Assembly (NCBI GenBank): GCA_918234285.1
Contig: CAKJXZ020000032.1
Coordinates: forward strand, 1 to 52,085
DNA: 52,085 nt
Direction of reading: 5' to 3'
Source: Pseudomonadota bacterium
GTDB lineage: Bacteria; Pseudomonadota; Alphaproteobacteria; RF32; CAG-239
This document shows, piece by piece, positions 37,404-52,085 of this stretch (position 1 is its first letter; each line of letters begins with the position of its first letter). A program made the position numbers and the translations under genes. The notes under the pieces were generated by a model. The model searched no databases, was not told the DNA's origin, and was given only the letters and a program-made list of their open reading frames with translations.

Positions 37404-37432
37404 TTGACAACCGACGAAAATGATGTTAAAAT
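37404..37432 (+). promoter_or_regulatory. Sigma70-like promoter
   Basis: TTGACA-17 nt-TAAAAT with TG extended -10. Confidence 0.75.
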
Positions 37433-37454
37433 TTTGTACAAAAGGGACGAAACT

Positions 37455-38501
37455 ATGAATTTTGAGCAATTTGATAAATTTATTGAATACGGTGAGTTCA
37501 GACAATTTGTTGCTGACGACGGACAGGCTTATGTCGGAGTTTTGCCGCGCCAAGCTTATTATGAACGCAAAGTAAGCGAAATTGCCGATGCCATAGTTGC
37601 CGAAAACGGCGAATATCCGATTCAGCTCGAAAAATTTATGAAACTGGCGCAAGAATATACACCGCTGCGCAATCAAAAAATTACGGAAGCATTCGAAGTA
37701 TTGAACACAAAATCGCCGGAAGAAATAAGTCGTTTATCGCCAAATAAACGCTTGGAAATTTTGGAAAGAATAATTCCGCCGCAACCTACCCTTGCCAATA
37801 TCAATAAATTAAAGCCGCACGCCGCTAAAATCGAACAACTGATGTTTGATTTGAAGTTTCCGCCGCAATTTTGGAAAGATGAAGAACGTCTAGCATCTTC
37901 TTTTGTTAATCGTTTGCAACTGATTCCGCATCTAAAAGAAAATATTGCCGATTGGCAACAGCTGGAAACGGCAAGGCAACAACAATGTATTCAGAAAATA
38001 GCCGATGTGTTTTGCAAAACTTACGGCATCGAACCGATTAAGATAACTTTCTTTACATTGGAGGAATTTAACCGAGATCGAGTAAATCAAGGCTTAGATC
38101 CGGTGGAAATTCCACCGACCGGCCAAGCTTCCGCTGCCGACCGGAGCATAAACTTTTGTGCCGACAGAATCAAAATTTGTGATAATTATGTGCCGATTTA
38201 TCTGACTTTTCACGAGGCCTTGCATATTTCGCAACAAGAACGTGATTTTCCGCAATATCCTTTGGTTGAGCGTATGTTTGCCCACAAATTCGACTTTTTG
38301 AAGCTGATTTCGGACAAAGCATATTTGCTCGAACCGTCGGAAATTCACGCTTATCATATAGATTCTCTGGTACAGAATAAAGCGCAGGAAACACTGAAAG
38401 TTCCGTTTGTTGCCAACAAATACGATGCTAAAACTCGCAAAGCCGTCGATTTAGCCAAACAAACCGCCGCCGCGCTTTATGCCCATAATATAAAAGAATA
38501 A
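37455..38501 (+). CDS. Hypothetical zincin-like metallopeptidase
   Basis: FHEALHISQ followed by Y...PSE.HAY; start moved to ATG 37455, downstream of the promoter. Confidence 0.78.
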   Translation: MNFEQFDKFIEYGEFRQFVADDGQAYVGVLPRQAYYERKVSEIADAIVAENGEYPIQLEKFMKLAQEYTPLRNQKITEAFEVLNTKSPEEISRLSPNKRLEILERIIPPQPTLANINKLKPHAAKIEQLMFDLKFPPQFWKDEERLASSFVNRLQLIPHLKENIADWQQLETARQQQCIQKIADVFCKTYGIEPIKITFFTLEEFNRDRVNQGLDPVEIPPTGQASAADRSINFCADRIKICDNYVPIYLTFHEALHISQQERDFPQYPLVERMFAHKFDFLKLISDKAYLLEPSEIHAYHIDSLVQNKAQETLKVPFVANKYDAKTRKAVDLAKQTAAALYAHNIKE

Positions 38502-38502
38502 G

Positions 38503-39147
38503 CTATTCTGCCGTCTGAGCTTCCGCTGCGGTATGTTCGCCGGAAGCCTTTTTAATCATTTCCACCACACGGTCAGTAACATCAATCACGTAGTTAGTAT
38601 TCACCGCCACCGATTTATTAATGAAAATCGTCGGGATATTGTCTTCCGACGCAATCTGCGCCAAGGCACTATTAATGTTGTTTAGGGCATCTTGGGTGGC
38701 CTTGCTGTACGCGTCAAGCAACTCGTCGCGCTTCATTTGCAACGGTTTAACCGACATTGTCAACACTTTGTTTTTAACCGCCTCTTCTTTTATATCTTTG
38801 ATGGTATCTTGAGCTTCCTTGACCTGCTTATCCAAATCATATATATCTTCCTCAAATTTGCGCGAAATCTCCGGCAAACCGATACCTTCAATCGCCTTAT
38901 CCGTGTTGAAAACATAGATTTTGCGACCGTCATTAACGTTGGTGGAAAAGTTGTTATCAAGGTCACCGATTAAATCTTTCAGGTCACTGACCTGTTTATA
39001 AAGAAAACCCGACATAGCAACACCTAAAACGGCAATAAATCCGCATAACCCGAGCCACAATTTATATCTGCGTTTCCAATCGTCATGCGGCTGCTTACCA
39101 GTATTGACATCTTCTGTTATCATCGCATTTTCTTTATCCGTATTCAT
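38503..39147 (-). CDS. Membrane-anchored OmpH/Skp-like protein
   Basis: N-terminal TM helix, short coiled coil, KIYVFNTDKAI...long helix...INSALAQIASE....IF......DVTDRVVEMI, matching the Skp layout; GAGG RBS. Confidence 0.7.
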   Translation of the reverse strand: MNTDKENAMITEDVNTGKQPHDDWKRRYKLWLGLCGFIAVLGVAMSGFLYKQVSDLKDLIGDLDNNFSTNVNDGRKIYVFNTDKAIEGIGLPEISRKFEEDIYDLDKQVKEAQDTIKDIKEEAVKNKVLTMSVKPLQMKRDELLDAYSKATQDALNNINSALAQIASEDNIPTIFINKSVAVNTNYVIDVTDRVVEMIKKASGEHTAAEAQTAE

Positions 39148-39212: not shown

Positions 39213-42200
39213 TTAGAACGAGTATGTCAAGCCCAGACGATATACTGCGTCGTCGGCATCGCCCCAAGCCAAACCGGCATTGACCATCAAGTTGTTGGTC
39301 AGCCAGTGGTAAGCACCGACAGCAACCGCCGGACTGGATTCATACATACCGGTACCGATTGAAAGCTGTGTCTTACCATCGGCACGAGAGTTCGGAGCCA
39401 ACGCTGACAAAGCGGACAACGAAGCCATACCGCCGCGCAACTTACGACGCAAGCTGTTGATTTCGTTTCTGTTCTGGTCAACTGCATAAGATATCTTATA
39501 CATATCCGCATCCAATACTCTGACCGCATCGGTCAAGTTGGTGGTTTCGGACAAGAAGTAAGTATCTTTCAAGTCAGACACATTACCGACCGCTTTGCTG
39601 ACGGCAGCAATATTCTGGTTAACCGTCTTATCTTTGCTTACTCCGTTAGGTACATCGGCTAACTGTTCCGCCGTACCGATTTGCGAAGCAATGTCGGTAA
39701 GAACATCGGCCACATACATCGTTTCGGTAGAGAACGCATAACCGTGAGTACCTTTTTCGTTGCTGATGGTTGTACGATCACCGATAGCATCATCCAACTT
39801 GGACAAGTGCATTTCAACCGTTGTACCATCTGCGAGGTTACCCTTATACGTACCTTCAGCTCTGCGTTTATCGGCCAAACCGTGAATTTTACCCAAAGTG
39901 GCGTCAAGGTTATTCAGTGCCGCCACAACCGTAGTAGGAGCCGTATATCCGCCATTGGTCAAATTCTTCAGTTCAATATTAAGGCCGCTCAAATCGCCAA
40001 CCGTATCATTAATCGCACTGATATTTTCGGTAATCGATTTTTCCGAGCTTACACCGTTATTGGCTGCAACCGCCGTACGTTTTTCAATTGTGTTCAGAGT
40101 AGCACCGTTACCAACATTGCTGTTGACTTTGGATACTGCCTCAACCAGATTGGTTACTTGTAACGTACCATAGGTAACACCCTTATCAGCGGTTACCTGA
40201 GCCGACCACTTATGATCTTGATCAAATTCGCCGCCCAGAGCTTCGTGAACACCGGTCAAATCAAGTGTGGTATTTTCAATGACGCTGACGCGGCTGTCCA
40301 ATCCTTCAATTGCCAAAGTATTGGCCGCAATCTGTGACGTATGTCCGGCTATTGTCGTTGCCTGAGCTTCTATTGCAGCCTTATTGGTAGCAATATCCGC
40401 CTTATTCTGAGCAATATCGGTGGTGTGTTGAGCGATTGTTGCCGCCTGAGCCGCTATTGCCGCGGTATTTGTTGCAATATTGGTCTTGTTGGTGGCAATA
40501 TCGCTTGTATTTTGAGCTATTTGCGCATCACGTGCATCCACCGCATCGGCAATATTGTCAATCCGATCACTCAGAACCTTATCAGCCGCTTTAACAGCTG
40601 CAGCCGTTACCAATTGCTTCTGCAATACGGCATCGGAACTGCTGGTATTAATGCTGTTAACGATTGACGTAACTTCCTGACCGTTGCCGAAGCTTAAGCC
40701 GTTATCGGCAGATAAAGTGGTCTTACCCGTTGCATTAATACCTCCGTTAACCGTCAAATCTCTGGAGCCGCCGGAAGTCGTCGAACCGATAACCACATTA
40801 TCCTTGAAGTTCGAAGTACCGGTAACAGTCATACCGTTGTTAACCACCAAAGTCGTAGTATTGATACCGCCGTTGGCGTTCATCAATCCCGCAAACGTAG
40901 CACTACCGTCTTTGCCGTCCAAAGTGATTCTGGTATCTACACCCTTATTGAGTTTCAGCGTATCGCCGTCCAATTCGGTTGTATAAGTACCGGCATCATC
41001 ACCATCACTGATAACCTTTTCAAACTTCTGCAGTTTCTTAAAGGTCTTGGTTCCGGTAATATCTTCGTTTCCGGACTGATGGACGGAATTACCGTCTATG
41101 CCGGCAACATAACTCTTAACCGCACCGGAGGTAATCAGCTTATCGCTGTTTTCGGTAACGACGCTGTCAACTTCTTTGAAAGCACCGGCCTTCAAACCGG
41201 CCACTGCAACCTGAGTGGTCACACCGTTAGTCGTAACGGCAATCTTACCGTTAGAACCTTCGCCGGTTGCCGTGCTGATGGAATCAACTTTGGCATCCCA
41301 TACGCTTTCCTTGGTTGCAAGTGTATCACTGGCATCCTTACCCGCGGCAGCGTTGTTGCGAATGGTAGTCAAGTCGCTGATGGCATCTTGTTTACCGCTC
41401 CAAGCCGTCTTTTCGGTATCGCTTACCAAACGATGGTCTGCATCGGTTTGCAAATCTGCGGCGGCACCCGTGGTTGCCACAGTAGCCAAACCGTGAACTG
41501 CAACATCCGTACCGCCAACATTGATGGTACCTGCGGTCGTGCCCTCGATAATATCGTCGGCCTGTAATGCCGAGTCTGCATTATCGAGTGAAGTCTGAAC
41601 CGCAGAAGCTAACTTAGCTTTGGTAATTTCGCCGTCTTTAATCATACCGTTGGTAATACCATTGTTGGCAATCGAGAATACATTGGTATTGCTCAGAGCC
41701 AATCCGGCGCCTGCGGTGTATGTTGCTCCGCCCGAACCGGTTGCGGAAATTTCGCCGGTTTCCTGATTGATTGTAATACCGGAACCTTGAACCAAAGTCT
41801 TCTGTTTGCCTTCTAAGCCTTTCTCCAACTTACCGATAGCTACATTCAAGCTGTCACCGGCTACAATCGGATTATCATTCGCGTACTTGGTATAACCGGT
41901 CATAAGGTTAACCTCGGCCGATGTATGAGTATGCGAAGATGCCGCATAAGCATTAGAACTGGTAAATGCCGCCGAGCCCAAACCATTAACCGCAATATCT
42001 GTACCGCCAACACTGATGGTACCTTGTGTACTGCCGGTATCAAAGTCAGAGACCGCAAGCGAATTTGCCGCTTTGGTTAATGCATTACGTACATCCGCTG
42101 CCAACTGAGACTTTTGAATGTTGGCATCCGGATCCAACTGAGCAGTAGTTAATAAGCCGCTGGTCAACGTGCCGTTTGCATCGTAATACAAAACCTTACC

Positions 42201-45200
42201 GGTACTGCCGGTACCGCCGTTGTTCAGAGCCAACTTCTCGTTGGTAATACCTCCGGCCAACATGGCGTTGGTAACACCGTTGTCAGAAATCGAGAAGGTA
42301 TTGGTCGTACCGTCCAAATCCAATCCGGCACCTGCGTAGTAATAAGCACCGCTGCCGCTACCGGTTACGCTGATAACACCGTCGGAAGTGATGTTAATAC
42401 CCGTACCCGGAGTTAAAGTACCCTGCTTAGTACCTAAACCGTATTCCAGTTTACCAATAGCTTGGTTCAAAGTATCACTGGTGCTGATCGCATCATAAGT
42501 AGCCGCCGTTGCCTTAGTATAACCGGTCATGGCATTAATCGCACTTGATACGTGGGTATGTCCGGCCAAAGCAAAGTAATCAGCATCTCTGTATGCCGCC
42601 GTACCCAAACCGGCAACCGCAACTTCCGTCGCCGCACCGCCGTTAACCGACAAAGCGACCGTACCGTCGGTAGTACCGGTGGTCAGGCTGATTGAACCGA
42701 CCTTGTTATCCCACTCGGTTGCTTTTCCGTCGGTAACAAGCATCTTATAAGCATCTTTACCCTGACCGGCATTGGCTATAATCGTATCCAAACCGTCAAT
42801 AGCGTCTTGTTTACCGCTCCAAGCCTCTTTCTCGGCATCGGTTACCAGGCGATGACCGGAATCGGTTGTCAAATCTTCAGCCTTTCCTGTGGTTGCCACG
42901 TCTTTCAAGTCTTTAACCTTAACATCGGTACCCTTGACACTGATGGTGCCAGCGGTGGTGCCGGTGGTGATGCTGGCTGCCTGCAATGCCGAGTCTGCCT
43001 TACCGAGTGAAGTTTGAACATCGCTGTCCAACTTGGTTGCCGCAATGTTACCCTTCAACATAGCGTTGGTAACACCTTCATCAGCAATCGAGAACTCGTT
43101 GTTTGTAGTATTCAGGCTCAAACCGCCGTTGGCTGCCGCACCGTATTTCGTATCGGTAGCGCTGATTTGACCGTTGGTAATCTGAATATTCTCGCCGGCA
43201 GTCAGCTTGTTAGCCTTAATGCTCTTTTGCAACTTGCCGAGAGCTTGATTAAGTGTATCACCTTCCGCAACATCTGCTGCCTCGTTGGCAATGACGTATC
43301 CTTCAAGTGAAGTAACTTCGCTTGACTTATGTGTATGAGAAGCTGCCGCAAAAGCACTTGCCTCGCTAAAGGCCGCACTCTTTAAGCCCTTAACCGATAC
43401 CTCAAGCGGAGTTTCGCTACCATCTATGGTCAGAGCAATATTGCCGTTGGTAGTAGCCGTTCCGGCCGTAATCGAACCGATCTTGCTGTCCCAACCGGAT
43501 TTTTCGCCGGAAGTTACAAATAAGTGGCTGTTGTCGGTTGTCAAATCTTCGGCTTTGCCCGAGATTGCCACATCGGCCAAACCGTGAACCTTCACAGGGG
43601 TACCTTTAACGCTGATGGCACCGTCAGTTGAGCCTTCCGTAATATCACCAGGTTGTAATGCCGTACCGGCACTGCTCAACAATCCGATAACTTCATCGTC
43701 AAACTTTTCCTTGCCGATGTCACCGGCCAACATATCGTTGGTAACACCGCTGACCGAGAAGGTATTGGTTGTGGTATCCAAAGCCAATCCGGCGCCGGCG
43801 TAATAGGTTGCTCCGCCCGTACCGGTTGCGCTGATAACGCCGTTGGTAATATCAATACCCGAACCGGCAGTCAGCTGATTGGATTTAACACCCTTTTCCA
43901 ACTTACCGATAGCTTCGTTCAAGCTGTCTTCCAGGGTGATATCCGAATATGCCGAAGCAATTTCATAACCGGTCATCTTGTTGATTTCGCTTGCCACATG
44001 GTTATGCGAAGCTAAAGCGAAGTATGTGTCGGCCTTGTATGCCGCCGTGCCCAAACCGGCAACGGAAACTTGCGTCGTATTACCGTCAACCGTCAAAGCA
44101 ATCTTGCCCGGAGCATTACCGGATGCCGCACTCACGGAACCAATCTTAGCATCCCAAGTGCTTGCTTTGGTGGCGAGTGTATCGCTGGCACTCTTACCTG
44201 CGGTCGCGTTGTTGCGAATTTCAGTCAAATCGCTGATGGCATCTTGTTTGCCGCTCCAAGTAGATTTTTCACCCGAAGTTACAAACAAATGGCTGTCATC
44301 GGTCGTCACCTTATCGGCCGCCAAGTTACCGCCGGTAGCTACCGCTGCCAAGCCGTGAACTGCAACCTTGGAACCGTTAACGTTGATTGCTCCGACGTCG
44401 TTACCTTCTGTGATGGCAATATCTACGGCATTATTCGTAACCGTCAACGACGAACCGTTAACCTTAACCGTCTGAATAGCCGAACCGGCACTGGTCAACA
44501 GACCGTTGACTTCATTATCCAACTTATCTTTACTGATATCGCCGTCCAACATATCGTTGGTAACACCGCCGGTGGCAATCGAGAATTCGTTAGCGGCATT
44601 CTTGGTCAAACCGCCGTCGATTGCCGCGCTGTATTTCGTGTCGGTAGCATTAATCTTGCCGTCTGTGCCGATGGTAACATTCTCGCCGGCCGTCAGCTTA
44701 TTCTTGGTGATGTTGTTTTCCAACTTATGCAAAGCAACATTCAACGAATCGCTGGCATCAAGAGCACCGTCAACCGTAGAAGCGGTATATCCGCCCAAGG
44801 TGGTTATATCCGACGTTGCATGAACGTGCGAAGCTTCCGCAAAAGCACTGGCCTCGCTGAATGCCGCGCTCTTTAAGCCTTTAACCGCAACTTCCAGCTT
44901 AGTATCGTCTACATTCAAAGCAATACTGCCGTTGTTGGTAGCGGTTGCCGCCGTAATCGAGCCAACCTTGTTGCTCCAGGCCGTTTTTTCACCATCGGTT
45001 ACAAAACGACGAGAAGTGCTCTCTGTTACCTTTGATGCTGCCAAATCACCGCCGATAGCTACATCTGCCAAACCGTTAACCTTAACATTGGTAACAGTAT
45101 CACCGTCTTTAACACCGATTGTACCAGGAGCAGTGCCTTCAACAATATCGGTTTTCTGCAGAGCCGTACCGGCCGCCGTAACTGCCGCTTGAAGATCGTC

Positions 45201-48200
45201 ATCCAATCTTTCAAACGTTACACCGTTATCGGCAATCGAGAACTCGTTGTTTGTAGTATTCAGGCTCAAGCCGCCGTCTTCTGCAGCAAGATAAGGTGCT
45301 GCCGAGCCGGTTGCGTTGATTTCACCGGTATCTTCATTGATGTAAATATTGGTACCGCTCTTATAAGTAGCGTTAATCTTACCGTCAACAATCTCAATAT
45401 GTTTACCGGCCTCAATGGTTGTCTGAGTTTCCAAAGCCTTTTCCAATTTACCGATAGCGGTATTAACCGTATCGTTTGCCGTTATGTATGAGGACGTCTC
45501 TGCTTTGGTGTAATCGGACAAGACGATATCACCGCCGCCCAAAGTAACATTAGCGCTCAACGGCTTATCGTTAATCGTACGGGCGTTGAAAGTGGCCGTA
45601 TTGAGTTTAGCATTCAAAGCATCAGTCAAACCGCTGATTTTGTTTTGATTGATGTTGCCGGCCAACATAGCATCGGTAACACCGCCGGTGGCTATCGAGA
45701 ACGCATTATCATTCAGAGCCAAACCGCCATTCGGAGCCGCCGTATAAGCCGCACCGCCGCCGGTTGCACTGATTCTGCCGTTAGCATCAATCGTAATGTT
45801 GGTGCCGGCCGTTAATGTGCCCTGTTTGGTATCCAATGCATATTCCAACTTACCGATGGCTTCATTCAAAGTATCGGTGGCGCTGATTGGCGCGAATGTA
45901 GTTGAAGATGCCTTGGCATAACCGGTCATGGCATTGATTTCGTTTGCCACATGAGTATGCGAAGCCTTAGCAAAGTAACTCTCGGCCTTATATGCCGCCG
46001 TATCCAAACCGGTTACCGTAACCTGAGTGGTATCACTGCCGTTAACCGTCAGGGCAACCGTACCGTTGGAGGAACCGCTGGCCAAACTTACCGAACTTAC
46101 CTTAGAATCCCAAGTATTTTCTTTTGCCTCAAGTATATCATAAGCATCTTTACCGAGGCTGGCATTACTGCGAATGGTAGTCAAATCACTGATGGTATTC
46201 TGCTTGCCGGTCAAGCCTTTTTCTAACTTACCGACAGCAGAATTAATCGTATCCTCTTCATCAATTGCCGTATAAGTATCAGCTATGACATAATCGGTTA
46301 ATGCGATATCTTTACCGCCCAGAGTAACATCCTGATTCAGTTTATAGCCGTTAATCTTACGATTATTAAACACTGTAGCATCAAGTTTATTATTCCAAGT
46401 AGAAATCTGGTTGTTGGTCACAAACTGATGGGTTGTATCGGTCACTACTTTGCTTGCCGCCAAATCACCGCCGGTTGCTACCGCCGCCAAGCCGTGAACC
46501 CTAACATCCGTACCGTCAACATTGATGGTACCATTGGTAGTACCTTCGGTAATATCTTCGGCCTGCAATGCTGTGTCTGCCTTACCAAGCGAAGTCTTAA
46601 CATCCGAAGCCAATTTAGCTCTGGCAATATTACCTGCCAACATGCCGTTGGTAACACCGCCGGTATTAATCGAAATGGTAGTGCCGTCCATAATCAGGCC
46701 GCCGTCTTCCGCTACCGTATAAGTAGTATCATTATCGGTTGCACTGATAACATTACCGGTAATCGTAATATTGCTACCTTCCGTCAACTTATCCTGCTTA
46801 TCGGACAAACCTTTTTCCAACTTACCGAGAGCAACGTTCAGAGTATCACTTTCTCCGAGCGCAGAATACATCGATTGGATTTCGTATCCGGCCAAGTTGG
46901 TAACATCGCCGGAACCATGGTTATGCGAAGCCTGAGCAAAGTATGTGTCGGCCTTGTATGCTGCACTACCCAAACCTTTAACCGCAACATCGGTAGCCAC
47001 ACCGCCGTCAACCGATACGGCGATTGTGCCGTTAGCAGAACCTTGGGTTATGCTGACCGAACTCAACTTAGCATCCCAAGTGCTTGCTTTGGTGGCGAGT
47101 GTATCGCTGGCATTCTTACCTGCGGTCGCGTTGTTGCGAATTTCAGTCAAATCGCTGATGGCATCCTGTTTGCTGTTCCAAGTGGCTTTCTCATTTGTAG
47201 TTACAAACAAATGACTGTCATCGGTCGTCACCTTATCGGCCGCCAAGCTGCCGCCTTTGGCCACATCGGCCAAGCCGTAAACTTCAACCGACTTATTGCC
47301 TACTTTAATTGCACCTACAACGTCGCCGGAAGTAACACTGCTTTCTTGCAATGCCGAGTCAGCCAAATCAAGCGAATCTTGTACGCCCTGAGCCAACTTA
47401 GCTTTGGTAATACCACCTTTTAACATAGTATTGGTCACACCGTTGTCAGCAATCGAGAATTCATGACTGTCGCTATCCAAGCTCAGACCGCCGTCGGTAG
47501 CCGCATAATAGCTTGTACCGCCGCCAGAACTGGTTGCTCTGATCTCACCGGTCTCTTGGTTAATATAAATACCGGAATCAGCCGCTGCAGTCAAAGTCTT
47601 CTGCTTGCCGTCCAAGCCCTTTTCCAACTTGCTGAGGGCTTCATTCAAGCTATCACCGTCGGCAAGTGCACCACTGGCAGATTTAACGTAATTCTTCAAC
47701 TCAGTCACGTCTTGCGAAGTATGATAATGAACCTTCGCAGCATAAGCATCTGAACTGGTAAATGCCGCCGAGCCCAAACCGGTTACCGTAACGTCGGTAC
47801 CCTTAACATTGATGGTACCTGCAGTCAAACCTTCTCCGATATCGGCCTTTTGCAATGCCGTATCAGCCTTGCCGAGTGAAGTTTGAACAGCCGAAGCCAA
47901 TTTTCCTTTGCCAATTGTATTGTCGGCAATCAGCGAACCGGTCAATTGACCGCTGGCCAGGTTACCATCCTCATCATAGTAAAGAGCGGTGTCAGCCGTA
48001 CCGGCTTTCAATGCCAACTTGCTGGTTTCGATACCGGCGTTGCTGCTGATATGCGTGTTGGTTATACCACCATCGGCAATCGAAAATGCATTGGTAGCGT
48101 TCTCCAAACTCAAACCGCCGCCGACAGCCGCCGTATACTTGGTATCAACGGCATTAATTTTACCGTTTGTTATGGTAATATTTTCGCCGGCCGTAAGGGT

Positions 48201-51200
48201 CTGCTGACCTTCTAAGGCCTTCTCCAACTTACCGATAGCCGTACTGATTGTATCATTTGTGTTAATCGAAGCTGCCGAAGACGCCTTCTCATATTCGGTC
48301 ATCTTCAAATCACGGGCATCCAATACCACGTCGATTTCCAATTCATGGCCGTTAATCGTACGGGCATTAAACGTTTCCGTATCGAGTTTGGCTGCCAAAG
48401 CACTGGACAAACCGCTGATTTTGCTCTGTGCAATACTGCCGGCCAACATATCGTTGGTAACACCGCCTTCGGTAATTGAGAACGTGTGATCGTCGCTCAA
48501 ACTCAAACCGTCACCGGCAGAATATGTAACTCCCACGGCTCTGATGGTGTTGCCATCGATAACGATACTGTCGTCAGCTGCCGTCAATTTATTCTGTTTA
48601 CCGCTCAAGCCGTTTTCCAACTTAGCTATAGCCACATTCAGAGAGTCATCAACATCAATATTACCGGTTATCGGAGTAGTTCCGTTCGTTGTTCTGCTGT
48701 AACCGGTCATATGAGCAATCTCGTTAGAATTATGACCATGGTTATATGCTGCAAACGCATCCTCATTGGCATACGCGGCCGTACCTAAACCGTGAACTTT
48801 AATATCAGTATTTTTGACGTTGATGGTACCATTGGCAGTACCTTCCTTAATGTCCGCAGCCTGCAGTGCCGTATCGGCCTTACCGAGTGAAGTCTGAACA
48901 CCCGAAGCCAGCTTCTCTTTACTGATATCGCCGGCCAACATACCGTTGGTAACGGTGCTGGCTACAACTTTGGCTGTAGTAGAGTCAACCGTCAAAACCT
49001 TACCCTTAGCCGAAGCATCTTGTGTTTCTGCCACAAAGTTACCTAAGTCGACAACCACCGGTGTGCTTCCGCCCTCATTAGTGGTAAATGTTGTCGCCAC
49101 ATCAGCACCGTTAATCCGCATCTTAATTGTCGCATTGCCCACATAATTGGCAACCGCTTGTTCCGTAACCAACGTACTTGAAGACGGAGTGCTACTGATG
49201 GCCGTGGATGCAACATCGTTGACAACCGCTTTGTTACCAAACACAATACCCGTGCCGGTACCGGTCTTGAAGGTGATATCTCCGGTCATGGTGCCGCCGG
49301 TCTTATCCAACTTACCGGCCAACTTATCGGTCAAGCCGTCCAAATTGTTCAAGTCATCGGCCGAAACACTTCTGGTCGTAAGTTTACCGTTAGTATCGGT
49401 CACAACCAACGCCGAGTTGGCACCCATGCTGCCCAACTTAGAAATGGCAATTTCGCCGTCGTTAATGTTGTTATTATAAATCTTGCCAACTTTCAGCTTA
49501 TTGTCACTCGTATCGAATACGATGGTATCTCCGTCAGCATTCGATGCCTGCAACGCCGTATTGGCCAAGTCGAGCGAACCCTGAACACCCGTATCTAATT
49601 TTTCATACGTGATACCACCCGACAGCATATTGTTGGTAACCTTCGAGAAGTCAACATTACCGCTGTCATTTACATACAATACCTTACCTTTGTTCGCGTT
49701 ACCCTGTACCTTCTCGACATAGCTGCCCAAATCGATTTCCAAAGAATCGCTTTGGTTAGCCGTAAATGTTGTCTGAGAAACACCGTTAATCTTCAGGGTT
49801 AAACCACCGTTGCCGACGTAGTTCTTAACCGCACTTTCGGTTACCAGGGCATTCGCCGAATTACCGCTGATGCTGGTTACAATACTCTTAGCAACAGTGC
49901 TTTCGTTACCGAAGCTCAAGCCTTTATCGGCTGACAACGTTGTCTTACCGGTAACGCCCAAGGTACCGCCGAGGGTGGTTGCGCCCGTAACGCCGAATGC
50001 ACCGCCGACCGAAACATCATTGCTGAAAGTTTTGTTTCCGGCAATGGTTTCATTATCCGTGCGGTGTACCAAACCGGCACCGGCCGTAGTGCTGTTAATC
50101 TCATCTTTGGTATAATAATCATCGCTGACCGAGCCTTTAATCTCGTTAATCGCCGCCACGATACTACCCTTATTTGCGGTATCTAAGCTGCCCAAAGCAC
50201 CAACATAATCAACAACCGCCTTTTCCGTTACCAGCTTGGTATGAACCGGAGCAACAGGTTGTTGTTCTTCTTCATGAGTAACACCGTCATTAATGGCTTT
50301 TGCCCAACCGGTAATCGCCGACTCGTTGCCGAGTTTGATACCGCTGAATGCCTGTGTACCGGATAAGATATCGTTGGAATAATTCGCCAAATTGGTTAAG
50401 TTAACCCCTACACCGTTATTGGCGTTAATCAAATTGACATCCGTACTGCCGTGTTTCAGAATTGCCGCCACCGGAGTAACGTGCGAATTCTTAATAAAGT
50501 CCGTACCCAAGCTGATTGTCGTATTAGCGGAATCATTAGCTCCGAACTCACCGGCAACCGTCGTACCGTTAACCGACAATGTCAGCTTACCTTTACCGAC
50601 ATAACCCGCCACGGCGCTGGTGGTAGCCAAAGCATTGTCCGAACCGTTACCGGTTACGCTGTTGCTTATACTCTTAGCAACCAATCCCTGATCACCGAAT
50701 TGTAAGCCGCCGGTCGCGCTCACTTGAGTCAAACCGCTGACAGTCACGTCTGTGGCATTGATACCGCCGTTAGCGTTAATCAAGCCGGTAGAGGTCAAAC
50801 CGCTGGTGAAAGTAGCTTCATCATTAAACGTCTTGACGCCGCCGATGGTTTCCGCACCCGAGGTGTGAACCAAAGTGTCGTTGAGAGCACGAATTGCGCC
50901 AGAGGTAATCAGCTTATAATCGTTGGCATAATTCGGTGTTTCCGTCGTACCGTTATCATAGAATATACCCGTTTGGCTATCACCGGCCGTCGTAACCGTC
51001 GTAATATTAATATTCGTATCGGATTTAGATACACCGGCTTCAGCCACTTTGTTATTAATGCTCAAACTCTGAATTGAACCGCCGGTCGTTGCCTTCAAAT
51101 CTTGAATTGCCTTCGCTACCGTGTCGGTAGAGCTGAAGGTTACAGCATCCTTGCCGTCAACCGCATCAGCCGTGCCGATGATGTTGGCAAGGGTAGATAA

Positions 51201-52085
51201 CTGTCCGCCCACCGTGTAGGAGTTGGTGACAAACGATTTGGCCGCATTAGTCATATTCAAATACTTAGTATTGGACGCAACTTTACCTAACTGACCGTAA
51301 GTCGCCGCATCGTGGTTATTTACACCGTCTGCTACGTTTACAATCTTGCTGAAGTAGTCGGCATTATACTGATCACCGCTGTTTCCTTGTTTATAATCAC
51401 CGGATTTATGACCAACCGAGATAATACCGGTTGTAGAAGTTGCCTCCTCACTCGCCACAGCCTGATAACCGATAGCGGTTGTATTAGCCGTCGTGGCATT
51501 GCTACCAATACCGATTGCCATCGAATCAGCTACGCTGGCAGTCGAACCCGTACCGGTGGAGTTTACCTTCATGTATTTCGAATTTACATTTCCGGCAAAG
51601 GTTGCATCACCGGTTGCACCGTCAAGAGTAATTGTCGTACCGGTACCATCACCGGAGTTCATAACAAACGTCTTGCCGTTGTTGCTGGTAATATCATCAC
51701 CGAACGTTGCCGCACCCGTAACACCGAGCGTACCGCCTACAGTGGTATCGCCGGCAAAGTTGGCATTGCCGTCTTTGGCATCAAGCGTTATTTTTGCCGC
51801 GCTCTCCGGATCGGTTACCTGTCCTAAACTCAGCGTTTTGCCGCTGAAGGCCATGGTATACGTACCATCGTCCTCGTCGCCGTCGTCAATCGTCTGACTG
51901 AACGTCTTAACACCGGTAATGGTCTCGTCGCCGGCCAAGTGTACCAACGTGCCGTCGAGTTCACGCACTGCACCCGAGGTAATCAGCTTATCGTTGTTGG
52001 CATAAACCGGTGACGCAGTTGTGCCGGTATTATAGAAAATGCTGTTCGTATCAGTACTGGTCGGAGCATTATCCGTCTTACTCGC
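39213..52085 (-). CDS. Giant trimeric autotransporter adhesin (YadA-like, type Vc), 5' end outside the window
   Basis: C-terminal YadA anchor (GGMASLSALSAL...LSIGTG.Y....AVAVG...YRLGLTYSF); IxxNTxx coiled coil; head/neck SMAIG...ISVG...IVNVADG...DAATYGQL. The frame stays open from 51968 to 52085 (ASKTDNAPTS...), giving at least 4290 aa. Confidence 0.96.
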   Translation of the reverse strand, partial: ASKTDNAPTSTDTNSIFYNTGTTASPVYANNDKLITSGAVRELDGTLVHLAGDETITGVKTFSQTIDDGDEDDGTYTMAFSGKTLSLGQVTDPESAAKITLDAKDGNANFAGDTTVGGTLGVTGAATFGDDITSNNGKTFVMNSGDGTGTTITLDGATGDATFAGNVNSKYMKVNSTGTGSTASVADSMAIGIGSNATTANTTAIGYQAVASEEATSTTGIISVGHKSGDYKQGNSGDQYNADYFSKIVNVADGVNNHDAATYGQLGKVASNTKYLNMTNAAKSFVTNSYTVGGQLSTLANIIGTADAVDGKDAVTFSSTDTVAKAIQDLKATTGGSIQSLSINNKVAEAGVSKSDTNINITTVTTAGDSQTGIFYDNGTTETPNYANDYKLITSGAIRALNDTLVHTSGAETIGGVKTFNDEATFTSGLTSTGLINANGGINATDVTVSGLTQVSATGGLQFGDQGLVAKSISNSVTGNGSDNALATTSAVAGYVGKGKLTLSVNGTTVAGEFGANDSANTTISLGTDFIKNSHVTPVAAILKHGSTDVNLINANNGVGVNLTNLANYSNDILSGTQAFSGIKLGNESAITGWAKAINDGVTHEEEQQPVAPVHTKLVTEKAVVDYVGALGSLDTANKGSIVAAINEIKGSVSDDYYTKDEINSTTAGAGLVHRTDNETIAGNKTFSNDVSVGGAFGVTGATTLGGTLGVTGKTTLSADKGLSFGNESTVAKSIVTSISGNSANALVTESAVKNYVGNGGLTLKINGVSQTTFTANQSDSLEIDLGSYVEKVQGNANKGKVLYVNDSGNVDFSKVTNNMLSGGITYEKLDTGVQGSLDLANTALQASNADGDTIVFDTSDNKLKVGKIYNNNINDGEIAISKLGSMGANSALVVTDTNGKLTTRSVSADDLNNLDGLTDKLAGKLDKTGGTMTGDITFKTGTGTGIVFGNKAVVNDVASTAISSTPSSSTLVTEQAVANYVGNATIKMRINGADVATTFTTNEGGSTPVVVDLGNFVAETQDASAKGKVLTVDSTTAKVVASTVTNGMLAGDISKEKLASGVQTSLGKADTALQAADIKEGTANGTINVKNTDIKVHGLGTAAYANEDAFAAYNHGHNSNEIAHMTGYSRTTNGTTPITGNIDVDDSLNVAIAKLENGLSGKQNKLTAADDSIVIDGNTIRAVGVTYSAGDGLSLSDDHTFSITEGGVTNDMLAGSIAQSKISGLSSALAAKLDTETFNARTINGHELEIDVVLDARDLKMTEYEKASSAASINTNDTISTAIGKLEKALEGQQTLTAGENITITNGKINAVDTKYTAAVGGGLSLENATNAFSIADGGITNTHISSNAGIETSKLALKAGTADTALYYDEDGNLASGQLTGSLIADNTIGKGKLASAVQTSLGKADTALQKADIGEGLTAGTINVKGTDVTVTGLGSAAFTSSDAYAAKVHYHTSQDVTELKNYVKSASGALADGDSLNEALSKLEKGLDGKQKTLTAAADSGIYINQETGEIRATSSGGGTSYYAATDGGLSLDSDSHEFSIADNGVTNTMLKGGITKAKLAQGVQDSLDLADSALQESSVTSGDVVGAIKVGNKSVEVYGLADVAKGGSLAADKVTTDDSHLFVTTNEKATWNSKQDAISDLTEIRNNATAGKNASDTLATKASTWDAKLSSVSITQGSANGTIAVSVDGGVATDVAVKGLGSAAYKADTYFAQASHNHGSGDVTNLAGYEIQSMYSALGESDTLNVALGKLEKGLSDKQDKLTEGSNITITGNVISATDNDTTYTVAEDGGLIMDGTTISINTGGVTNGMLAGNIARAKLASDVKTSLGKADTALQAEDITEGTTNGTINVDGTDVRVHGLAAVATGGDLAASKVVTDTTHQFVTNNQISTWNNKLDATVFNNRKINGYKLNQDVTLGGKDIALTDYVIADTYTAIDEEDTINSAVGKLEKGLTGKQNTISDLTTIRSNASLGKDAYDILEAKENTWDSKVSSVSLASGSSNGTVALTVNGSDTTQVTVTGLDTAAYKAESYFAKASHTHVANEINAMTGYAKASSTTFAPISATDTLNEAIGKLEYALDTKQGTLTAGTNITIDANGRISATGGGAAYTAAPNGGLALNDNAFSIATGGVTDAMLAGNINQNKISGLTDALNAKLNTATFNARTINDKPLSANVTLGGGDIVLSDYTKAETSSYITANDTVNTAIGKLEKALETQTTIEAGKHIEIVDGKINATYKSGTNIYINEDTGEINATGSAAPYLAAEDGGLSLNTTNNEFSIADNGVTFERLDDDLQAAVTAAGTALQKTDIVEGTAPGTIGVKDGDTVTNVKVNGLADVAIGGDLAASKVTESTSRRFVTDGEKTAWSNKVGSITAATATNNGSIALNVDDTKLEVAVKGLKSAAFSEASAFAEASHVHATSDITTLGGYTASTVDGALDASDSLNVALHKLENNITKNKLTAGENVTIGTDGKINATDTKYSAAIDGGLTKNAANEFSIATGGVTNDMLDGDISKDKLDNEVNGLLTSAGSAIQTVKVNGSSLTVTNNAVDIAITEGNDVGAINVNGSKVAVHGLAAVATGGNLAADKVTTDDSHLFVTSGEKSTWSGKQDAISDLTEIRNNATAGKSASDTLATKASTWDAKIGSVSAASGNAPGKIALTVDGNTTQVSVAGLGTAAYKADTYFALASHNHVASEINKMTGYEIASAYSDITLEDSLNEAIGKLEKGVKSNQLTAGSGIDITNGVISATGTGGATYYAGAGLALDTTTNTFSVSGVTNDMLAGDIGKEKFDDEVIGLLSSAGTALQPGDITEGSTDGAISVKGTPVKVHGLADVAISGKAEDLTTDNSHLFVTSGEKSGWDSKIGSITAGTATTNGNIALTIDGSETPLEVSVKGLKSAAFSEASAFAAASHTHKSSEVTSLEGYVIANEAADVAEGDTLNQALGKLQKSIKANKLTAGENIQITNGQISATDTKYGAAANGGLSLNTTNNEFSIADEGVTNAMLKGNIAATKLDSDVQTSLGKADSALQAASITTGTTAGTISVKGTDVKVKDLKDVATTGKAEDLTTDSGHRLVTDAEKEAWSGKQDAIDGLDTIIANAGQGKDAYKMLVTDGKATEWDNKVGSISLTTGTTDGTVALSVNGGAATEVAVAGLGTAAYRDADYFALAGHTHVSSAINAMTGYTKATAATYDAISTSDTLNQAIGKLEYGLGTKQGTLTPGTGINITSDGVISVTGSGSGAYYYAGAGLDLDGTTNTFSISDNGVTNAMLAGGITNEKLALNNGGTGSTGKVLYYDANGTLTSGLLTTAQLDPDANIQKSQLAADVRNALTKAANSLAVSDFDTGSTQGTISVGGTDIAVNGLGSAAFTSSNAYAASSHTHTSAEVNLMTGYTKYANDNPIVAGDSLNVAIGKLEKGLEGKQKTLVQGSGITINQETGEISATGSGGATYTAGAGLALSNTNVFSIANNGITNGMIKDGEITKAKLASAVQTSLDNADSALQADDIIEGTTAGTINVGGTDVAVHGLATVATTGAAADLQTDADHRLVSDTEKTAWSGKQDAISDLTTIRNNAAAGKDASDTLATKESVWDAKVDSISTATGEGSNGKIAVTTNGVTTQVAVAGLKAGAFKEVDSVVTENSDKLITSGAVKSYVAGIDGNSVHQSGNEDITGTKTFKKLQKFEKVISDGDDAGTYTTELDGDTLKLNKGVDTRITLDGKDGSATFAGLMNANGGINTTTLVVNNGMTVTGTSNFKDNVVIGSTTSGGSRDLTVNGGINATGKTTLSADNGLSFGNGQEVTSIVNSINTSSSDAVLQKQLVTAAAVKAADKVLSDRIDNIADAVDARDAQIAQNTSDIATNKTNIATNTAAIAAQAATIAQHTTDIAQNKADIATNKAAIEAQATTIAGHTSQIAANTLAIEGLDSRVSVIENTTLDLTGVHEALGGEFDQDHKWSAQVTADKGVTYGTLQVTNLVEAVSKVNSNVGNGATLNTIEKRTAVAANNGVSSEKSITENISAINDTVGDLSGLNIELKNLTNGGYTAPTTVVAALNNLDATLGKIHGLADKRRAEGTYKGNLADGTTVEMHLSKLDDAIGDRTTISNEKGTHGYAFSTETMYVADVLTDIASQIGTAEQLADVPNGVSKDKTVNQNIAAVSKAVGNVSDLKDTYFLSETTNLTDAVRVLDADMYKISYAVDQNRNEINSLRRKLRGGMASLSALSALAPNSRADGKTQLSIGTGMYESSPAVAVGAYHWLTNNLMVNAGLAWGDADDAVYRLGLTYSF
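41150..48960 (-). repeat. Mosaic coding repeat region of the adhesin stalk
   Basis: Recurring modules GLGxAA...HxH (9x), LNxAIGKLE, GGVTNxMLxG, QTSLGKADxALQ and D..HxFVT..EK..W..K (7x). Confidence 0.92.

Follow-up and report, generated by a model that had tools for sequence, protein, structure and literature searches.

The window analyzed here, 52,085 nucleotides in length, is the entire contig CAKJXZ020000032.1 (C32) of a 2.0-Mb, 71-contig draft genome of an uncultured Alphaproteobacterium; DNA of this organism is present in animal gut metagenomes. The minus strand carries at 39213..52085 a giant trimeric autotransporter (TAA) gene, and the encoded protein, P0001, is probably a type Vc adhesin of this animal-gut bacterium in which most of the passenger is a stalk of phage-fiber origin. 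The gene is one uninterrupted reading frame (4290 codons plus stop) that is still open where the window ends; its 5′ end is truncated by the end of the contig. From the N-terminus, and in minus-strand coordinates, P0001 consists of an N-terminal flank (aa 1-780; 49746..52085), a phage-fiber-like stalk (aa 781-3640; 41166..49745), a membrane-proximal passenger (aa 3641-4230; 39396..41165), and a YadA-type membrane anchor (aa 4231-4290; 39216..39395). The stalk modules are homologous to modules of phage tail- and head-fiber proteins, and in sequence searches they are otherwise almost absent from autotransporters.

Anchor, flanks and repeat anatomy

Type Vc anchors contribute four strands to a 12-stranded barrel, and the N-terminal Sec signal of these proteins is often extended. 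The C-terminus of P0001 matches the Pfam family YadA_anchor (PF03895) with an E-value of 2.5e-11 and 43.9 bits against a cut-off of 22.7, and also the YadA anchor structure in the Protein Data Bank (PDB), 2lme (E 9e-6); the protein terminates at the barrel (...TYSF, then stop) and lacks a periplasmic extension. By this anchor the protein is classed as a trimeric autotransporter, in agreement with a preliminary description of the window made from the letters alone, which had placed such a giant protein here with a YadA anchor at approximately 39213-39440. The same description proposed a canonical YadA head and neck at approximately 51290-51540. Head repeats and neck were placed at aa 187-274 (51264..51527), but both matches are below the Pfam cut-offs (YadA_head at aa 187-209, 19.3 bits against 25; YadA_stalk/neck at aa 247-274, 24.2 bits against 28.4) and the region is better termed a short YadA-like head and neck. 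A neck-like string in the translation, ...DAATYGQL, resembles the neck consensus DAVNxxQL given in PMC7247746; a fragment of SadA (2yo3) matched weakly (E 0.013).

The N-terminal flank also contains three BppL_N-like modules (Pfam E 4.1e-15) and three LVTExAVxNYVG connectors, and aa 661-743 matches the receptor-binding protein of phage TP901-1 (4hem and others, E 7e-5). The motif VHxxGxETIxGxKTF, for which four copies in the flanks had been reported, is found as three strict copies (aa 48, 406, and 3668) and a fourth, variant copy near aa 672, which can be aligned to the TP901-1 receptor-binding protein. A fourth, weak BppL_N-like module lies within the membrane-proximal passenger (Pfam E 0.0039); this region also features a heptad-like Ala/Asn/Ile-rich stretch at approximately aa 3830-3930, which on visual inspection looks like a classical coiled-coil stalk, and weak matches to coiled-coil-type NCBIfam models at aa 3818-3948.

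Self-comparison delimits a self-similar zone of approximately 2860 aa between these flanks. Repeats in this region had been described as covering about 2600 aa up to position 48960; the repeats are real, but the zone is longer and extends approximately 790 bases further 5′, to 49745. Five modules were defined from anchored motifs and their copies aligned: AK (YxAGxGLxL...FSIAxGGVTNxML...KLASxVQTSLGKADTALQ), TF (GLAxVA...TDxxHxFVTxxEKxxW), DW (QDAISDL...WDAK), GHSL (GTIxV...GLGSAAY...HxH...SLNxAIGKLE...LTAGxNITI), and R (RxINGxxLxxDVxL with a second SLNxAIGKLE-type end). P0001 contains 14 AK, 18 GHSL, 12 R, 8 TF, and 6 DW modules. In alignment A1, ten units fall into a single super-repeat in which some cassettes are optional, following the cycle A-K-(G'-T-F-(R)-(D-W))-G-HxH-S-L; the module order is therefore cyclic and not shuffled as first proposed, and this fixed cycle is kept colinearly in both full-length homologues (5227 and 5382 aa). 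One complete super-repeat, consisting of AK, a linker, TF, DW, and GHSL, lies at aa 1524-1790 (46716..47516) and served as the structure-prediction unit.

Regular expressions recover ten copies each of GLGSAAY-like, FSIAxGGVTN, and YxAGxGLxL strings, six of KLASxVQTSLGKADTALQ, and three of RxINGxxL; the seven copies reported for TDxxHxFVTxxEKxxWxxK are accounted for by six strict copies and one aligned variant (RRFVTDGEKTAW, aa 2359). The HxH motif is present in nine units and is kept in at least 90% of A1 rows. At the DNA level the repeat copies share 60-88% identity, which places the repeats far beyond chance and indicates that the array is old; alignment A1 was too variable to be used as a seed for a collection scan.

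Only three of 1523 scored candidates (2359-7508 aa) share modules with P0001 at E <= 1e-5: P0002 (5227 aa) and P0165 (5382 aa), which list PF03895, and P0166 (2834 aa), which does not. Residues 451-4290 of P0001 are colinear with residues 1403-5227 of P0002 at 74.5% identity; identity to P0165 is 0.33-0.45 in the N-terminus, 0.62-0.85 in the stalk, and 0.99 in the anchor, in an almost gap-free alignment. Both homologues carry this anchor too, and their N-termini are complete, opening with a long signal-like leader (MKYTRTALGLL...); because they extend further, approximately 950 N-terminal residues appear to be missing from the window protein. The same genome encodes three further YadA-anchor genes, all of which are without the stalk modules, and when the 4401 genome frames of 100 aa or longer were searched with a repeat piece (phmmer), this gene alone matched; 200 other genomes of the family (23 genera) returned 0 matches at E <= 1e-5. 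Among the listed papers on trimeric autotransporters and tail fibers, no title or abstract describes such a protein, and the main text of a 2026 preprint surveying all TAAs does not contain the word 'phage' or 'tail'.

Phage-fiber relatives of the stalk modules

Relatives of the stalk were collected with HMMER using a 925-aa query (aa 1036-1960) against 1.84 billion protein-cluster representatives, which returned 895 matches at E <= 1e-3, 159 at E <= 1e-10, and 14 at E <= 1e-30. The best 150 of these 895 are 137-2171 aa long, apart from P0002 (the 5227-aa TAA), and a profile built from the anchors of this genome matched only one of the 150 best clusters. Among the 46 relatives scanned with Pfam (P0003-P0048 of the best 150), YadA_anchor is absent from all, and 13 carry a phage-fiber family above its cut-off (PTR in six, Peptidase_S74 in three, and Phage_head_fibr, Mtd_N, Phage_tail_C, Gp10_C, and Gp34_trimer in one each). 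A PHROG match at 1e-5 was obtained for 43 of the 46, and for 35 the PHROG is labeled tail, head, or connector; since these matches are partly to the shared modules themselves, they indicate that phages carry the modules and not that every relative is a phage protein. Pieces of the window protein match phrog_2012, a 'minor tail protein' (E 1e-15), and phrog_1857.

A second search limited to proteins of 508-1619 aa gave 292 matches at E <= 1e-8; PF03895 occurs in none of the 120 listed, many of which carry PF13884, PF22337, PF12789, PF11133, or PF24243. The repeat modules match no TAA Pfam family, and neither the repeat piece nor profile A1 matches a solved TAA structure in the PDB at E <= 1; PDB matches to ATP synthase delta were discarded as chance-level (E >= 0.016). 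These results support two suggestions of the preliminary description, namely that the modules are not classical TAA stalk elements and that they resemble repeats of phage tail fibers. A search of the modules in phage versus cellular proteins had been proposed there as a check, and the relatives collected here are overwhelmingly non-autotransporter fibers.

The arrangement of the modules is also partly shared. Among the best 150, AK is found in 43 proteins, TF in 36, DW in 26, GHSL in 133, and R in 73; neighbor rules recur in the relatives, with TF followed by DW in 19 proteins, AK by GHSL in 30, and DW by GHSL in 9. The AK to TF adjacency is seen in just 2 of 149 non-TAA relatives, and the full AK-TF-DW-GHSL cycle is therefore rare among them and particular to the TAA.

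The closest non-TAA relative among the best 150, P0003 (E 1.5e-84), has a 100% identical gene on a 52,951-bp IMG/VR viral contig, where it lies among genes that include those for DNA polymerase, tail and virion structural proteins, the head maturation protease, and the major head protein. A second IMG/VR contig of 67,315 bp carries a fiber frame of at least 2617 aa (L088:4570-12420 (+)) containing 12 GHSL-type modules; its GHSL module map is equal to that of P0166 (2834 aa) and it lies behind the same 346-aa tail protein, thus giant fibers built from these modules exist in viruses too. Relatives of P0037, which features three AK-GHSL pairs followed by Gp10_C, were found at 61 viral loci. Scans with alignment A2 confirmed 241 of 576 candidate stretches in viral contigs and 10 of 113 in 185,579 species genomes (one per species), a rough contrast that gives no clean enrichment ratio because the two scans used different pattern sets. 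The ten genome loci belong to gut or rumen metagenome-assembled genomes (MAGs) of several phyla, have frames of 119-838 aa, and in no case contain the anchor.

Cultured phages were covered by a tblastn search of 50,697 phage records with aa 1000-3700 as the query; the 202 records that matched are all Mycobacterium or Mycolicibacterium phages, at 36-42% identity over 3-5% of the query (E ~4e-6); the matches listed are annotated 'head fiber protein' or hypothetical, and gut phages are not among them. A close-relative scan with the 925-aa piece returned nothing in viral contigs or in genome contigs, and P0006 was not found in viral contigs. The ESM Atlas gave viral clusters with all scores < 0.9, which are considered leads only.

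Predicted trimer and proposed assembly

The AlphaFold2 monomer of one unit is poor (predicted local distance difference test, pLDDT, 63.7; predicted template modeling score, pTM, 0.21), too poor for a fold search; Foldseek against BFVD with this model gave one match at E <= 0.001 (major tropism determinant, template modeling score 0.15) and, below it, the names hyaluronidase and tail-fiber, none of which is counted as evidence. The preliminary description had proposed modeling the modules as trimers, and this was carried out on one super-repeat. The homotrimer of aa 1524-1790 scores 0.78 (runs 0.78, 0.78, and 0.81) compared to 0.00 for the best of three controls; in calibrating the mark used for this score, 20 of 30 solved pairs and 1 of 23 single chains attained it, but that calibration was made on two copies with the tool's own alignments, while the present models have three copies and a custom alignment. 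The trimer has a pLDDT of 92-95, and at least 96% of its contacts recur between runs. Almost the entire unit takes part in these contacts, with same-residue pairs at 56, 186, 193, 194, 233, and 240, as is expected of an in-register parallel trimer; residues 198-211, the HxH stretch, fall within the predicted interface. The prediction for one stalk super-repeat is thus an in-register homotrimer.

In T4 gp37, iron on the fiber axis is coordinated by HxH pairs, a motif that many phage fibers have (PMC11705849). A beta-layer pattern, in which a hydrophobic residue and a small residue are followed by T, occurs in both TAAs and phage fibers (PMC4786415), and the FVTxxEK and LVTExAV motifs of P0001 fit this pattern. 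The following assembly is hypothesized. After Sec export and barrel insertion, the passenger would thread out and, starting at the anchor, fold progressively outwards as an in-register parallel trimer; the anchor would replace the C-terminal trimer nucleus that phage fibers receive from a tip or chaperone domain. By analogy with T4 gp37, the HxH of each unit may form an axial metal site, and the TF modules (FVTxxEK) may act as beta-layer caps leading into short coiled coils. Such a rigid fiber would serve adhesion by keeping its fast-evolving N-terminal head well away from the cell. YadA with 422 aa measures 23 nm and BadA with 3082 aa measures 240 nm (PMC7247746); by extrapolation, a 5300-aa protein would reach roughly 400 nm. 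It is tentatively suggested, as a rather unlikely possibility, that the stalk does more than act as a spacer and is a cell-anchored tail fiber retaining phage-type traits, namely axial clamps of iron or zinc, nine or ten in number, and the capacity to bind surface glycans of bacteria side-on; with it a small-genome gut Alphaproteobacterium would grip other bacteria, not host tissue.

Origin of the stalk and comparison with known fibers

A tree of 66 near-complete GHSL copies, built on few columns and with an arbitrary root, places the 28 TAA copies on one side of a branch (Shimodaira-Hasegawa-like approximate likelihood ratio test support 92) together with two long-branched non-TAA rows. Within the TAA copies, the three alleles group by position into triplets with support of 97-100; this pattern fits one capture followed by internal amplification before the alleles split. 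In this scenario a single event would have brought a segment of a phage fiber gene into a TAA gene, where internal copying would have raised it to about ten units ahead of the divergence of the three known alleles. The earlier idea that a viral fiber was domesticated is supported insofar as the modules are homologous to phage ones; that transfer went from phage to cell is what we infer.

Several observations weigh against a phage-fiber origin of the stalk in a type Vc adhesin. No candidate donor phage is known, the cultured phages having yielded only the 36%-identical Mycobacterium 'head fiber' match, and the viral and genome scans differed in their pattern sets; the PHROG evidence is partly module self-matching. 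The repeat zone has a GC content of 0.489 and a GC content at third codon positions (GC3) of 0.501, both equal to the flanks and within the genome range, and so bears no compositional trace of transfer. The head and neck matches are sub-threshold, the trimer is a prediction scored on a two-copy calibration, and metal binding, surface display, and adhesion are putative. A crude test of hydrophobicity assigns Sec-like N-termini to approximately 23 of the 150 relatives; these look like cellular exported fibers, thus the module pool is not purely viral. Lastly, a locus in a Candidatus Enterousia sp. MAG (L084:9707-10384 (+)) lies among housekeeping genes with no phage genes recognized by eye. Its product is 225 aa in length with a signal peptide and two R-type modules; from translations judged by eye, a 542-aa secretin-like gene is positioned just ahead, and suf, plsY-like, dprA-like, and dnaA genes are found in the surroundings.

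The last two points are the starting material of an alternative in which the stalk modules derive from a cellular pool of exported mosaic fibers in gut Alphaproteobacteria such as Candidatus Enterousia, an old toolkit common to phages and cells of which the TAA is one more user. This is considered unlikely. The Sec-like signals in the 23 relatives and the signal-bearing R-module protein of Enterousia, set between suf genes, the secretin-like gene, and dnaA, speak for it, as do named mid-size matches from MAGs of Alphaproteobacteria and Rickettsiales, one on a 695-kb contig; however, approximately 127 of the 150 relatives are signal-less, including the 11 best non-TAA relatives, the best of these is on a viral contig, and no such exported fiber was found in the genome itself or in the 200 family genomes. 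Capture of a phage-fiber segment remains the preferred reading.

It is very improbable that the gene is cargo of a prophage or other mobile element, like the Eib autotransporters of E. coli prophages, and not a chromosomal adhesin. Prophage-borne TAAs do exist (the EibD structure 2xqh is given under 'Enterobacteria phage P' in PMC7247746) and the contig end hides the DNA upstream of the gene; the 13 kb downstream, on the other hand, encodes truB, pnp, a glycosyltransferase, and an amidohydrolase (Pfam), and no phage family was found among the nine downstream frames scanned, four of which had no match at all. The composition of the gene equals that of the genome, and all four TAA genes of the genome share a helper-like gene directly downstream; on the downstream genes, the common helper-like gene, and the composition, prophage cargo was rejected.

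The helper-like gene of the window (38503..39147, minus strand) lies directly downstream of the TAA gene on the same strand and encodes 214 aa with a single membrane helix and a coiled-coil region. The protein matches Pfam OmpH at E 4.6e-4 with 20.9 bits, under the cut-off of 32.4, and is possibly a Skp/OmpH-like helper. Paralogues of approximately 195-229 aa are positioned directly behind all four YadA-anchor genes on the same strand, those outside the window being at C51:2330-2971 (-), C31:1731-2315 (+), and C12:45156-45842 (+); the TAAs of this genome are without a periplasmic domain. A 2026 survey of TAA neighbors reports no additional helper proteins, and its text contains neither Skp nor OmpH. 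Convergent with the helper-like gene is a 365-aa frame at 37404-38501 (+) with no Pfam match above the cut-off (best Tmemb_cc2, E 2.2e-4).

An assembly chimera, in which a phage fiber gene was joined to an autotransporter anchor, can practically be dismissed and was rejected: the genome is a 71-contig draft, the gene is repetitive with a contig break inside it, and no single public contig compared spans the whole gene, but the independently recorded P0002, P0152, and P0165 show the same colinear repeats-to-anchor architecture, and contigs from four runs of four studies tile the gene at 95-100% identity, covering 30, 27, 20, and 11 of 30 bins. The run covering most bins may be the source sample; no RNA run is among the sequencing runs listed as containing the sequence. 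Small contigs of the draft genome carry pieces matching the N-terminus of the homologue: C33 (2990 bp) matches the P0002 leader peptide at 89% identity, and C23, C4, and C5 match P0002 residues 598-866.

Contig coverage in the sequencing runs shows some irregularities. At window positions 51653-52085, the contig word depth in run X1 rises from approximately 9 to 30 in the last bin, resembling a collapsed repeat. Between repeat copies, single low-depth contigs in run X4 join over 3000 bases (44250-47251) and 2276 bases (46597-48874), and one in run X3 joins over 830 bases (51132-51963); the X3 and X4 joints may reflect alleles that carry fewer cassettes, or the assembler may have jumped from one repeat to another. 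Copy-number variants were considered from the uncovered gene parts in X3, X4, and X6 and the three joints, whose shorter sides are 28-34 letters, and were set aside as too weak.

P0001 resembles BadA of Bartonella, SadA, and AtaA in its C-terminal YadA-type anchor, in a short head and neck that are YadA-like by sub-threshold matches, in the great length and repetitiveness of its passenger, and in being predicted to be an obligate trimer; the stalk of BadA is likewise a repeated cassette. The stalk units of P0001 are, however, not among the elements of the TAA dictionary in PMC7247746 (FGG, saddle, necks, KG, coiled coil) and, unlike those of BadA-type TAAs, are homologous to phage fiber modules and carry HxH; the full-length homologues are also longer, at 5227-5382 aa compared to 3082 aa for BadA. 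With long tail and head fibers of phages (T4 gp37 and gp34; PTR, Phage_fiber_rpt, and Phage_head_fibr proteins; the BppL N-terminus of TP901-1), P0001 shares modules, neighbor rules, HxH, the BppL_N-like VHxxGxETIxGxKTF motif, and a predicted in-register trimer. It differs from them in that its downstream neighbors (truB, pnp, glycosyltransferase, amidohydrolase) are not virion genes, in having a membrane barrel at the C-terminus in place of a receptor-binding tip or Peptidase_S74 domain (Pfam), and, compared to non-TAA fibers, in its complete AK-TF-DW-GHSL cycle.

The MAT fibers of Bdellovibrio bacteriovorus (Caulton et al. 2024, PMC10769870) are, by their description, also cellular surface trimeric fibers with a phage-fiber-like mosaic that contact other cells, with a beta-prism stalk and variable C-terminal binding domains. 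Part of that family has an S74 domain, whereas in the window the fiber ends in a type Vc anchor; PMC10769870 does not use the term 'trimeric autotransporter' at all. Hartmann et al. (2016, PMC4786415) described connectors that the tail-fiber hyaluronidase HylP1 ('TAA short neck homolog') and TP901-1 BppL share with TAAs. Those are short connectors common to TAAs and phage fibers, while here approximately 2860 residues of whole fiber modules are involved; the present case differs in scale, with a whole fiber shaft and its HxH motifs on a type Vc anchor.

If a phage-fiber origin holds, the gene would be a natural experiment in fiber engineering, in which shaft modules fold outwards from a membrane barrel without a tip or chaperone; residues 1524-1790 provide a concrete unit for structural work. 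If the tentative suggestion of a cell-anchored tail fiber is true as well, phage shafts would be able to dispense with their C-terminal chaperone in folding as long as a type Vc barrel provides a nucleus for the trimer, and this would be a general rule for moving fiber modules between viruses and autotransporters. The protein would also add to the evidence that uncultured gut Alphaproteobacteria build surface fibers from viral parts.

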